Assembly (NCBI GenBank): GCA_963696295.1
Contig: CAVOJR010000002.1
Coordinates: 32,001 to 96,000, forward strand
DNA: 64,000 nt
Direction of reading: 5' to 3'
Source of the DNA: an uncultured Chlamydiae bacterium
GTDB taxonomy: Bacteria; Chlamydiota; Chlamydiia; Chlamydiales; JAJFMB01
This document shows, piece by piece, positions 18,185 to 28,469 of this stretch (position 1 is the stretch's first letter; each line of letters opens with the position of its first letter). The notes under the pieces were generated by a model. It was not told the DNA's origin and did no database searches. It saw nothing but the letters and a program-made list of their open reading frames with translations. The translations under genes and the position numbers were made by a program.

Positions 18185-19615
18185 TTAGTCGTGCATTGTT
18201 TTCAGATTAGACTCTTTTGATCTTCGTGAACGTTCGGCTAGGGGAGATGGTTCTTGAACATGCTTCGAAGTGTTTGGCGCCAGCGGGTACCTCTTTTTGC
18301 AGGCACCAGAATATGTCCCGGACTTTTCTAGTAAAGACTGGAGGCGAGTAAATTCTGACTACTAAATAGTTTCTCTATCGCGATCCTGTGATGTTTTCTA
18401 CACTAGTGGGTTTATCGGTCAAAGGAGTAATGCTGGACTTACACTCTTTCAGCATCCTCAACCGCACCAAGCTCAACCCCGTATCCTTTTTCGTTAGGTT
18501 TTCTAACAACTATGCGCCCATTTTCAGCCCATGCGGTAGCTTAATTTCCCGAGCTTCATATCCAAGTTCAGATAGCCCTTTAAGCATAGCGGTTCTTCGG
18601 GCACTCCCCTGCCATAGCTTTTCCGTTTCTTCTTCTGCTACCCAAAGGCACATACCTTCATCGTAGAGCAGTTTACTTGAAGAAGTATCTTCAAGCAACC
18701 AATTGCTTTAGTGAGTAATGGTTTCTCCAAGGTCTTCAGCCTGTTTAGATTTTAGTCTATGCAGGTCGCTGCTAATTTCTCGCATGGATGTGATTGCTTT
18801 ATCTTTCGCTTTTCTTTCATTAGAGTGGGCCACTGGATCTATAATGAGAGAGTCGGTGAGGAGAGATCTACGACTAGCTGAAACGCAATTTTTTAAGAGA
18901 TAGAAGTAATGCGATCTAAGAAGGGTTTGACAAACGATTTATCCTCTGTTACTTCCAATTCAGCTACGAAGCTTATCCAGCTCAATGATCCTTCTCTAAT
19001 GATTTGGCATCATCATGTTGGACTTTCCAATCCGCTAGAGTTTTGAGCATCTCCCCTTCCGCCAACTTTTTTGAGAGCTCTTTTTGCAGCAGAGAGGTCA
19101 TGCTTTTTTGATCGGTTGAGCTCATAGTATATTCGGCTGAGATTCGGCTCAAAGTGGCGTTCATTGCAGCTCATAATTCTGCGTCATTCGCTGTGAGTGA
19201 TGATGAAGCAATGTCTAAGAGCTTTTCTGGGATTTGTCGTTGTATGGATTTAACTGTCGAGATAAGGGTCTCTGCTGGGTAATAACATCTAGTTGGTCTT
19301 CTCATGTTACGTTCATGTCTAAGCTTTCAGCAATAGCCTCGTCTCGTATTTGATTCATATCGGCTTGTAGGGACGGAGACTCCGACACCCCATTGTTTTT
19401 GCACGTCAAGAAACTGAAACTCTCGAACATTTTAATGATAGCAGAAAGCCTTTTCTCTATGGCCTTTTCTTCTTCCGCAGTTAAGGCATTGTATCTAGCT
19501 CGGAGCACCCACTCATCATTGTTTGATCGCATCTTGAAGGGTATCGATTCTGCCTCTGCAAATGGACATCACTTCTTGTTTGGTAGACTACGCGTACTAC
19601 CTTAGGGCCGCTCAT
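18185..19615 (-). pseudogene. Coiled-coil hypothetical, gene 4 of the AAA/radical SAM/kinase-helicase operon
   Basis: GGAGG RBS then ATG 19615, MSGPKVVRVV..; fragments ..RRTAMLKGLSELGYE, ENGRIVVRKP..GYGVELG, DRDRETI*..EFTRLQSLL; many stops and frameshifts. Confidence 0.7.
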
Positions 19616-19621
19616 GCTCTT

Positions 19622-25961: not shown

Positions 25962-26613
25962 AGATCTTCTCCCTGGTAGAGCTTTCGTCCTGTGTGGTTA
26001 CAGCAAGATGGCCCTCTTTTGCTAAGATAGTCTTTAAGCGACGCATATCATCGCGCCTAGGAATACCAGCAAGCCAAATGGCTCCGGCTTCATCAAACAT
26101 AATATCAAAAGTCTTATCCGATGACTTAAAGGCTCGATCGAAAGGACGGAATCGAGTTTCTCCTAGAGGGGTAAGACAATGGAGACGTTGGTTATCGCTC
26201 CCGCGTAAAGCAAGAGTTTGTGGGGCATTTTCATCATACGGGTCTGAGATCAAGGCATCGATTGTTCCCTGACATTTTTCAACCGTAGGGGTGATCTTTT
26301 CAAAAGGGTGTCCGCTATAGACGAGAATGTCGATACTCGTTTTAGAACGAGTTTGTGCCAAAAGATGGATGAGAGCTTCGGGTTGATCGAAGGGTTCACC
26401 TCCAGAAATCGTGATCCCATCTGCTTCCTGAAGCCAAGGAGAGATCACATTCATAATTTCATCGACAGATACACCGCCTTTCCCGGTTCCCCATGTGTCG
26501 GCTGAGACACATCCCTTACAACGAATAGAGCATCCTTGAAACCAGATCCCAATACGGCGACCTGGCCCCAATGTTGTAACTGGGAAGTGAATCCTGGAAA
26601 GGTAGAGCATCAT
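25942..26613 (-). CDS. Radical SAM protein (NrdG/activase-like, single 4Fe-4S cluster)
   Basis: LGPGRRIGIWFQGCSIRCKGC (CxxxCxxC), GITISGGEPF, YSG, LRGSDNQ; overlaps both neighbours. Confidence 0.92.
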   Translation of the reverse strand: MMLYLSRIHFPVTTLGPGRRIGIWFQGCSIRCKGCVSADTWGTGKGGVSVDEIMNVISPWLQEADGITISGGEPFDQPEALIHLLAQTRSKTSIDILVYSGHPFEKITPTVEKCQGTIDALISDPYDENAPQTLALRGSDNQRLHCLTPLGETRFRPFDRAFKSSDKTFDIMFDEAGAIWLAGIPRRDDMRRLKTILAKEGHLAVTTQDESSTREKIYDTLCP

Positions 26614-28469
26614 AATGTCACACTCTCTGTGGTCAGGCTAAGCTTAGTGACCTTACCAGTTTCAACGGAACGAATAGAAAGCCGACTACCCGTTTCAATG
26701 TTTTCATCGAAAAGAGCACGAGAAAGAGGATTTACTAGATGGGTTTCAATTTTATTACGAATTCCCCGTCCTCCGTTCGATAAATCTTTTAAACAAAGCT
26801 CTCTAAGTGTTTGCAGAGCCGTTGGATCGATGGAGATATCGATGCCTTGAGATCCTTTCAGATCTGATAGTACGCTATCCACCATGCTCTTGAAGATTTG
26901 CTCAGCTATGTTTTCGCGAATGAAGTCGAATACGATGATATTGTCTCCGATCCGGTTGAGAATTTCAGGGCGATTGAGAGTCAATTTAAAATGTTTCTCA
27001 ATCTCCTCGCGGATGCGTTTTTGGATGTTCTCAAACGAATCTTCTGGTGAAACGGTTGCTTTTCTTTCGCCTGTAATGTCAGTTTGATAGATTCCCAGAT
27101 TCGAAGTAAAGACGATGAACGCCTCTGTAAAATAAACTCTTTCCCCTCTTCCTGACGTCAAAACACCGTCATCTAGAATCTGGAGAAATTTATCGAGGAT
27201 TCTTGGATGAGCTTTTTCAATCTCGTCAAAGAGAACTACGCTAAAAGGCTTTTCCCGAATCGCATTGGTCAATTCTCCTCCCATATCATATCCGACATAG
27301 CCGGGAGGAGCTCCGATCAAACGTTGATCTGAATGTTCAGCACTGAATTCCGACATGTCAAAGCGGATGTAAGCGCTTTCATCGCCAAATAAAAGGCTTG
27401 TTATCGATTTAGCAAGCTCGGTCTTTCCCACTCCGGTTGGCCCAGCTAAAAAGGCAACGCCTCGAGGACGTCCACCACGGCGAGGAGCTCCTACTCCAGT
27501 CACAGCGCGCTTGATAATATCGAGCATGTGAGCGACTGCGTGATCTTGACCTTTGACCCTTTCCATAATGAAATTCTGTCCATCGCGAATCTTTCTACGG
27601 TCGAGCTTTTGCCAGGGATCTTCGGAAACTCCCACTTTATAACGACGCACGGCTTCTCCAATCTTGGCGTATCCTAATTTCTCCTCACGACAAAGTTGTG
27701 CAATCAACATGAGATCGACGAGAAGGAGTCCTTCAGTGTTATCTACAAAACTTTGAATGGCAGTATCTTTTAGCTGTGCTGAAGCTTCTTTTGCCCCATC
27801 AAGTGACTGAATCAAGGACTTTGCTAGAACTTGACGCATTTGATGATCAGGATTTGGAATGGAAATATGGCGAACTTTAGAATTATCAAGAGTAAACCAG
27901 TCTGGCATGTCCCCTTCTTTCTCCACGATCCATAGGACAGTATTAAAAAAAGGTTTAGGCGGTGTCCCATGCGCACGAACGCGTGCTTCCTGAGATCGAA
28001 TCAGCGCCCGTGTAAAAAGCCGGTGCTCGCTATCAGTGAGATTATTTTGGTGAATAATAAGCCGGGATGCGAAATCGACAATTAAAGCTATAGGCTCACC
28101 TTTCCATGCAATCAGTTGTTCTAGGACTTGTTCAAAAAGATCTAGGCCAGCTGGGGCACATCCGTTGACCGGCTGGAGTCCCAGTTGCTTCATGACGTTT
28201 TCAGCAGATTCACGACCTTGTTGAACGGACATCGGGTCGATTAATTTAAACCCATTGATGAAGTCGTAACTCAAAACATGAGGGTAGCCATAGCTTCGAA
28301 GATCTGCATTTAAACAGGAAGTGAAAGAACGCACAACAGCTCCGCCCGATTTATCTTCTGTTTGTAGGTCGCGTACATTCCCTGAAAGAACAAACTGACT
28401 TTTCAATGGCAAAAAACGAAGAAGATCGCGCAGCCATTTTAATTTTCGAGTTTCAAAGTCATTAATCAT
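26610..28469 (-). CDS. ClpA/B-like AAA+ ATPase (only the D2-type module is intact)
   Basis: VKGQDHAV, GPTGVGKTELAK, RFDMSEF, LIGAPPGYVGY, VVLFDEIEKAH, RPEILNRI, GGRGIR; N-terminal half lacks a Walker A. Confidence 0.92.
   Translation of the reverse strand: MINDFETRKLKWLRDLLRFLPLKSQFVLSGNVRDLQTEDKSGGAVVRSFTSCLNADLRSYGYPHVLSYDFINGFKLIDPMSVQQGRESAENVMKQLGLQPVNGCAPAGLDLFEQVLEQLIAWKGEPIALIVDFASRLIIHQNNLTDSEHRLFTRALIRSQEARVRAHGTPPKPFFNTVLWIVEKEGDMPDWFTLDNSKVRHISIPNPDHQMRQVLAKSLIQSLDGAKEASAQLKDTAIQSFVDNTEGLLLVDLMLIAQLCREEKLGYAKIGEAVRRYKVGVSEDPWQKLDRRKIRDGQNFIMERVKGQDHAVAHMLDIIKRAVTGVGAPRRGGRPRGVAFLAGPTGVGKTELAKSITSLLFGDESAYIRFDMSEFSAEHSDQRLIGAPPGYVGYDMGGELTNAIREKPFSVVLFDEIEKAHPRILDKFLQILDDGVLTSGRGERVYFTEAFIVFTSNLGIYQTDITGERKATVSPEDSFENIQKRIREEIEKHFKLTLNRPEILNRIGDNIIVFDFIRENIAEQIFKSMVDSVLSDLKGSQGIDISIDPTALQTLRELCLKDLSNGGRGIRNKIETHLVNPLSRALFDENIETGSRLSIRSVETGKVTKLSLTTESVTL

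Follow-up and report, generated by a model that had tools for sequence, protein, structure and literature searches.

What could unite a Clp-type AAA+ ATPase, a radical S-adenosylmethionine (SAM) enzyme, a giant helicase-nuclease and a helical protein in one transcription unit? The question is raised by a four-gene operon of an uncultured Chlamydiae bacterium (assembly GCA_963696295.1, genome size 3.43 Mb). The operon occupies positions 18,185 to 28,469, minus strand, of the 64,000-nucleotide (nt) stretch analysed here as a whole (hereafter the window; positions 32,001 to 96,000 of contig CAVOJR010000002.1), which is part of the 135-kb second contig of the genome. A preliminary description, made from the letters of the window, had suggested a mobile conflict system with the helicase-nuclease as effector and the other three proteins as sensors or remodellers. 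Comparison with relatives shows a conserved, mobile operon and supports an effector and three regulators as likely, and judging from gene content a role of the system in defence is probable. The following genes and domain matches are concerned:

26610..28469, minus strand: gene 1, Clp-type AAA+ ATPase of 619 amino acids (aa; AAA_2, E 5e-46), with a degenerate first tier and an intact ClpB-D2-like second tier
25942..26613, minus strand: gene 2, radical SAM enzyme of 223 aa, similar to NrdG and the activase of pyruvate formate-lyase (PFL) (Fer4_12 match; CxxxCxxC and GGEP intact)
19622..25961, minus strand: gene 3, double Zn-ribbon, pseudokinase, DUF4011, superfamily 1 (SF1) helicase and MTES_1575 nuclease; broken in the present assembly
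24926..25631 (bounds approximate), minus strand: pseudokinase domain in gene 3 (Pkinase, E 2e-15; catalytic motifs lost)
23528..23782, minus strand: DUF4011 match in gene 3 (E 7e-14)
18185..19615, minus strand: gene 4, helical scaffold with an N-terminal MSGPK strand and a C-terminal alpha/beta domain; broken in the present assembly

The tight coupling given in the preliminary description holds in detail. Genes 1 and 2 overlap by 4 nt and genes 2 and 3 by 20 nt, and alignment to an intact relative (L009) places the end of gene 3 at 19,622 and the start of gene 4 at 19,615, with the proposed 6-nt gap (19,616–19,621) in between. The length of gene 3, estimated at about 6.3 kb, was likewise accurate (6,340 nt as compared to 6,237 nt, or 2,078 aa, in L009).

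Conservation of the operon and exchange of its cargo

An ATPase query retrieved ten loci from species-level genomes, and the four genes were intact and in the same order in 10/10. Six further intact copies were identified on plasmids and in sampled genomes (L023, L024, L201, L202, L204 and L207), L024 being a Rhizobium plasmid locus. The co-occurrence that the preliminary description had put forward for checking is thereby found in 16 loci of Chlamydiota and Proteobacteria, some of them closely related (L002 and L009 share 97% identity), and the junctions overlap in the 16. The closest relatives mostly stem from records labelled Chlamydiota or Legionellales. Interrupted copies occur in L021, L022 and L200, and integrases or insertion sequence (IS) elements lie near several relatives. 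The system is rare and patchy, with gene 4 present in 6/400 Chlamydiota genomes (window genome included) and the ATPase in 8/401 Proteobacteria. None of 80 viral loci carried the module; five phage records match the D2 part of the ATPase only, and scans of metagenome and viral contigs returned mostly ordinary Clp D2 domains.

Across 34 loci of at least 5 kb, collected with the N-terminal tier of the ATPase, a radical SAM gene was present in 30/34 and a relative of gene 4 likewise in 30/34, three of the latter being assigned by position and alignment. The conserved unit is the ATPase, the PFL-activase/NrdG-like radical SAM enzyme and gene 4, and the cargo is exchanged between loci. A helicase with a PIN domain takes this place in five plasmid loci (Moellerella, read from one of six records, Polaromonas (L027), Acinetobacter, Photobacterium and Leisingera), kinase, Zn-FHA and PP2C genes do so in other loci, and double-GTPases in a Geminocystis locus; L203, L205 and L206 hold the core without a nuclease.

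Several further arrangements were observed at the related loci. Three double-GTPase genes and a HigBA-like pair are enclosed by the core on a plasmid from a cyanobacterium (L031:613-11977). One genome, G255, carries extra IS-split partial ATPase copies upstream of its intact operon (L207:19266-19901, L216:1-3894). In four related loci (L002, L003, L008 and L009, ~8350-9890, minus strand) a divergent Cas4-like/HhH/RNase_H_2 nuclease gene lies upstream of the operon, and in another a CBASS-type cyclase and an HNH-SAVED effector are located ~5 kb upstream (L006:2963-4896).

State of the window copy

The breaks in genes 3 and 4 are concentrated in one stretch of the window:

15300..23410, no strand assigned: frameshift-dense stretch spanning the 3' part of gene 3, gene 4 and one unrelated gene

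Below ~23,410 the two genes show 90–97 frameshifting gaps against each of five relatives, as compared to 1–5 above 23,470. Most of the gaps are insertions of one or two bases that lie outside homopolymers; relative to L009, 55 single-base insertions (39 of the 55 outside homopolymers) were counted against seven deletions. Third-position divergence does not rise, amounting to 0.32–0.37 within the dense zone and 0.34–0.36 outside, and relatives at 86–97% identity differ from one another by 0–2 non-triplet gaps only. The zone runs past a dif-like site into the unrelated gene (~16,300–17,640), which is equally broken, and it is the sole 6-kb stretch of the genome empty of open reading frames (ORFs), none of 549 chromosomal bins being alike. 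Long reads that have not been polished typically contain noise rich in insertions. Because of the sharp onset, the insertion bias, the flat third-position divergence and the neighbour broken alike, it is highly probable that genes 3 and 4 are broken by assembly error, probably in unpolished long-read sequence, and that the copy is unbroken in the living cell. Intact genes are probably hidden in the public assembly of this contig. True pseudogenes are the alternative, in keeping with IS-disrupted operon copies elsewhere (L021, L022 and L216) and with one frameshift near 24,680 that falls outside the dense zone; moreover, no sequencing runs are listed for window positions 19000–28400, hence the case for an error is an indirect one. 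Still, the insertion bias and the unchanged third-position divergence, the near-gapless relatives, the crossing into an unrelated gene and the unique ORF-empty stretch all count against pseudogenes, which are considered unlikely. As the breaks are probably assembly errors, the protein analysis was done on intact relatives. The unrelated broken gene (16300-17640, plus strand) has a homologue beside the operon in G255, where it encodes a 449-aa protein (L216:3917-5266).

The helicase-nuclease

Gene 3 is open in the relatives, with 1,937–2,811 aa; that of G255, at about 2,800 aa, exceeds all others seen. The order of domains given in the preliminary description was recovered by a domain scan of an intact relative, which found a double Zn-ribbon (weak), a kinase fold, DUF4011, an SF1 helicase and REase_MTES_1575. 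In 8/8 relatives the protein retains the helicase motifs as well as the D...ExD...H pattern of the nuclease. The beta-3 Lys and the DFG Asp of the kinase fold are lost in the window and in 8/8 relatives but present in 4/4 kinases of other variants; the domain, described earlier as a plain kinase, is therefore a pseudokinase, and an active kinase in gene 3 was rejected.

The best family matches of gene 3 are ProA (536 of 1500 bits) and Hhe (311 of 2000 bits), below both cut-offs, with the PADLOC candidate PDC-S37 also among them. As in gene 3, DUF4011, SF1 helicase and MTES_1575 nuclease are combined in one chain in Prometheus (ProA), Hhe and PDC-S37. DUF3320 gave no match at E 0.01 in 4/4 gene-3 proteins scanned, whereas a separate DUF4011-helicase-nuclease gene in L025 does carry it. 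Gene 3 thus differs from Prometheus and Hhe in the undetected DUF3320, in the additional N-terminal Zn-ribbon and pseudokinase, and in its constant association with three more genes; Prometheus is a single-protein system according to the available portion of PMC13700489. Mokosh type I, as set out in the accessible part of 10.1101/2022.05.11.491447, likewise joins a kinase domain and a Upf1-like helicase in one protein, and gene 3 matches Mokosh MkoA at E 2e-49. In the same portion of that source Mokosh type I has a PLD nuclease partner gene, which is absent from the present operon; conversely, the kinase of gene 3 is degenerate and Clp, radical SAM and scaffold genes are added. Membership in Prometheus, Hhe and Mokosh was rejected, as cut-offs were missed and neither DUF3320 nor a PLD partner was detected.

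The Zn-ribbon, the kinase and the segment that follows match separate Zn-ribbon-FHA and active kinase genes (E 2e-7 to 4e-3). L025 holds a DUF4011-helicase-nuclease, an active kinase and a Zn-FHA protein as separate genes, each matching parts of gene 3. Because its parts match separate genes of other variants, side by side in L025, gene 3 is best read as a Prometheus/Hhe-like effector to which accessories of the core are putatively fused.

The Clp-type ATPase

The ATPase had been described as a single-ring Clp protein, which proved incorrect. A structure model (predicted local distance difference test score, pLDDT, 86.8; built with 27 sequences) gave fold matches to ClpC, ClpA and ClpB, and its alignment to ClpA covers both tiers (residues 8–619, Z 26.5, root-mean-square deviation 8.4, 490 aligned residues). 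The first of the two tiers is catalytically degenerate: in an alignment of 11 sequences, tier 2 retains Walker A/B, pore loop, arginine finger and sensor 2, whereas the Walker motifs of tier 1 are lost in 11/11, SGNxxD standing for Walker A in the consensus. Two stacked AAA+ tiers are shared with Class I Clp/Hsp100 proteins, which carry catalytic Walker A/B in both, as opposed to tier 2 only in gene 1. Going by eye, we take the protein to be without N-domain, M-domain and ClpP-docking loop, and it scores below the ClpB family cut-off (260 of 1232 bits). An ordinary ClpB/NrdG housekeeping pair was rejected. ClpB-D2-like ATPases in a defence setting are also represented by Dodola DolB and PDC-M37B; these match the D2 tier of gene 1 only (E 2e-18 and 4e-28, respectively), and no partner gene was matched. 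Dodola combines DolB with DolA, and membership in this system was rejected, as no DolA partner was found and the DolB match is not full-length.

The radical SAM enzyme and its predicted partner

Gene 2 has the CxxxCxxC and GGE motifs and the short activase fold of glycyl-radical activases. Its best NCBIfam match is NrdG (80.7 bits as compared to a cut-off of 126.1), and it remains below every NCBIfam cut-off; among solved structures it is closest to PFL activase (E 3e-14), followed by QueE at E 1e-3, and one relative shows a weak viperin match (E 6e-6). Fold family, cluster motif and peptide-binding face are common to gene 2, PFL activase and NrdG. The latter two act with glycyl-radical enzymes, whereas none was found in the present host or loci: a search of the host genome (G000, 97% complete) returned no NrdD or glycyl-radical domain with positive search controls, and the usual kind of substrate is therefore missing. 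An RxxGY-type motif occurs in none of the four operon proteins, and its C-terminal form in no long ORF of 25 loci. The radical SAM family of gene 2 also sits (E 5e-47) in an operon with a Ycf46-type ATPase, DUF2997 and DUF1257, seen in one locus, which differs from the present system in the ATPase clade and in having small separate proteins instead of a single scaffold. The N-tier profile of the ATPase gave no match to the Ycf46-type ATPase of L209, and a DUF1257 query found none in viral contigs and 1/351 in Proteobacteria.

Gene 4 encodes about 460 aa in the relatives. It matched no Pfam, PADLOC (including MkoB) or NCBIfam family and has no solved relative by sequence; its own family comprises 1,414 clusters at 50% identity (E up to 0.001). 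The structure model (pLDDT 80.8) consists of an N-terminal strand, long helices and a C-terminal alpha/beta domain. The earlier label of a coiled-coil protein is thus adequate for the long helices but misses the C-terminal domain and, according to the models, a radical SAM partner. One fold search gave no match at E 0.001, another generic helical bundles only (best Z 10.4), and the ESM Atlas contained unnamed clusters only, with no usable named match for residues 318–445. Among distant relatives (145 aligned rows), Ser2 and Gly3 are conserved in 138/138, a Gly-Tyr pair in 142/142 and a Cys in 141/141; the Cys recurs in 21/21 aligned C-termini across variants, and a Met-Ser start in 15/16 as compared to a background of 10% (two starts re-picked, one left open). 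Profile comparison of the C-terminus with DUF2997 gave 64% for the helicase+PIN and GTPase types (shuffles at most 3.7%), with the Cys shared, 49% for all types pooled, and 0.2% for the type of the present operon alone; with Pfam, E 0.05 was obtained in one relative. The helix-GY motif resembles DUF1257 (Ycf35) by eye, a likeness that is statistically unsupported (profile 1.5% against one sequence).

Complex modelling, which the preliminary description had suggested, was performed for gene 4 (residues 1–445) and gene 2 (residues 1–210), both from L009, with alignments. It yielded a predicted pair with a score of 0.77 as compared to 0.00 for the best of three controls. The runs agree in at least 91% of contacts, and the partner pLDDT is at least 89; the score mark is reached by 116/157 solved and 2/215 mismatched pairs, counts that are only rough when own alignments are used. 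The best-defined contacts connect the Gly-Tyr helix-strand of gene 4 with the C-terminal extension of the enzyme, and the interface also takes in gene-4 residues 1–12 and enzyme residues around the cluster. It includes L15 and S37, which align with Asp16 and Asn38 of PFL activase, the peptide anchors described in the accessible part of PMC9326890; gene 2 thus has Leu in place of the anchor Asp, and in the model its C-terminal extension docks on gene 4. In this prediction, the enzyme docks on gene 4 via its substrate-binding face, where PFL activase holds the glycine peptide. Direct binding of the two proteins is accordingly rated as very probable by modelling, and the N-terminus of gene 4 may enter the active site. 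Since gene 4 lacks solved relatives, the model is unlikely to reproduce a similar complex already known to the predictor, except for the activase-peptide mode.

Relation to known systems

That no characterised system with this combination was known, as the preliminary description stated, agrees with our searches: no named system and no paper matched. A full-text literature search, whose coverage leaves out most subscription papers and supplementary neighbourhood tables, found no description of the operon or its core. Conflict systems in the available text of PMC7159879 pair an unchanging NTPase core with varying effectors, examples being chaperone-thresholded systems of the MoxR-vWA and GTPase types. 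The present core follows the same pattern and is coupled to double-GTPases in one locus, like the GTPase type; it differs from MoxR-vWA systems in that its motor is Clp-type rather than MoxR and no vWA is present, and the core does not appear in the portion of that text compared. A precedent for radical SAM enzymes that mature a defence protein is the HXS anti-phage system (available part of PMC13128918), albeit with two larger radical SAM enzymes, a periplasmic His-X-Ser effector and no AAA+, helicase or nuclease in the portion considered.

Proposed mechanism and alternatives

Taken together, the chances are about even that the operon is a mobile conflict system directed against invaders: a core of three proteins carries exchangeable cargo, and a radical mark, Clp remodelling and a gated Prometheus/Hhe-like effector act in combination. 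The radical SAM enzyme would remove a hydrogen at the Ser/Gly conserved at the N-terminus of gene 4, giving rise to a covalent mark or a protein radical; we lean slightly towards gene 4 being the chemical substrate of the enzyme. In the Clp hexamer the dead tier would recruit and the live tier would pull, so that the scaffold is remodelled. This remodelling might release or license the helicase-nuclease, which would attack nucleic acid of the invader or the host, and gating of the effector by the ATPase through gene 4 is plausible, though marginally doubtful. The Zn-ribbon and pseudokinase may be the relic of an ancestral phospho-switch, retained as sensor or docking site. More tentatively, the system might represent a new class of conflict systems, in which an activase-like enzyme marks the N-terminus of a scaffold, a half-dead Clp motor reads or erases the mark, and interchangeable effectors are gated.

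A number of observations weigh against this proposal. Defence genes were found near about 5/14 operon loci (L002, L006, L010, L024 and L207) and near 2/14 ordinary-Clp controls (L062 and L090), after generic matches had been dropped (IstB, MoeB, MoaA, ABC, RecG-like, small methyltransferase/ATPase domains and a second AAA fragment). The defence-island enrichment for which the preliminary description had called is weak and the numbers are too few for a claim, and the case for defence therefore rests on the cargo, not on the neighbourhood. Moreover, the radical SAM gene is missing from 4/34 loci that hold the ATPase; the link of gene 4 to the helicase+PIN type depends on weak profiles (0.8% directly, 16–97% via intermediates); and the Ycf46/DUF2997/DUF1257 operon with the same radical SAM family holds no nuclease. 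Finally, the complex was modelled without SAM or cluster, so that the N-terminal Met in the SAM pocket may be an artefact.

Gene 3 could also be a self-sufficient Hhe/Prometheus-like defence protein, with genes 1, 2 and 4 as a separate stress or protein-quality module that came to be linked with it. Its best scores (ProA, 536 bits; Hhe, 311 bits), the single-protein nature of Prometheus and the copies of the core without nuclease would fit such an origin, but gene 3 has incorporated, as fused domains, the Zn-ribbon and kinase parts known from other variants of the core, the junctions overlap in the 16 intact loci and two different helicase-nuclease cargos were recruited, and we regard it as an unlikely one. 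Within a defence system, the radical SAM enzyme may instead act on a nucleotide or nucleic acid in a viperin- or QueE-like manner, with gene 4 as its holder or inhibitor; an inhibitor would occupy the same active-site face as the modelled gene 4, and the weak viperin match as well as the QueE matches point the same way. The closest solved relative is protein-activating, and almost all gene-4 proteins have the N-terminal Ser, which renders this option improbable. Oxygen cleaves glycyl-radical enzymes, and the core could accordingly be an oxygen or redox switch, in which oxygen cleaves a protein radical on gene 4 and stress, not phage, is what the cargo responds to. An activase-like enzyme for which no glycyl-radical partner was found and the invariant Gly and Cys of gene 4 are in line with such a switch; against it stand the cargo, mainly nucleases, helicases and conflict GTPases, and the lack of an RxxGY-type motif in the four proteins, and it is given little credence.

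Returning to the proposed radical-marked scaffold, a large orphan branch of radical SAM enzymes, annotated as NrdG in databases with no reductase present, would gain a candidate substrate in gene 4. If the switch holds, it would be a new way of gating immune effectors, by radical chemistry and unfolding rather than by nucleotides or phosphorylation. It would also tie the Ycf46/DUF2997 module, so far unexplained, to defence against phages and would account for the Ycf46/DUF1257/DUF2997 operons found in cyanobacteria and plastids.

Genomic setting

The operon is preceded by a putative promoter and surrounded by dif-like sites and restriction-type genes:

28553..28582, minus strand: sigma70-like promoter 84 nt upstream of gene 1 (12/12 consensus; consensus match only)
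17731..17758, plus strand: dif-like site downstream of the operon (4 mismatches relative to the site at 31624)
28934..28961, plus strand: dif-like site upstream of the operon
31624..31651, plus strand: dif-like site at the end of the GmrSD cassette
13784..15274, plus strand: neighbouring Mrr-type restriction nuclease
29426..31549, plus strand: neighbouring GmrSD-type protein with DUF5655

Domain matches of the flanking genes confirm the placement between Mrr and GmrSD given in the preliminary description. The 28-nt sites, dif-like by consensus, were found at 17731, 28934 and 31624, as compared to 0–1 such sites in ten shuffles of the contig. Together they bound the operon and the GmrSD gene here; the preliminary description had used the two around the operon as an argument for mobility, but the arrangement is confined to the present copy (0/10 relatives). 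All three sites are in direct orientation, as is the one chromosomal look-alike (C1:3021565-3021592), the only chromosomal match with at most 3 mismatches and a candidate chromosomal dif. Two weaker look-alikes at ~13508 and ~16228, recognised by eye, would carry the cassette array up to the Mrr gene. Plasmid matches were sought for window positions 15280–18000, and none were found.

Possible resistance genes in the window are a hexapeptide-repeat acetyltransferase (11815-12453, minus strand), presumably Vat/CatB-like, and an APH-family phosphotransferase (31773-32672, minus strand). Eukaryote-like ubiquitin C-terminal hydrolase domains are encoded at 862-3039 and 33095-34729 (both plus strand), possibly in host-directed proteins. 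The same contig carries a resolvase (12854-13411, plus strand), a transglutaminase-like gene (35003-36022, minus strand), an RND efflux set (40424-46270) and a Fic protein (54661-56244, plus strand).

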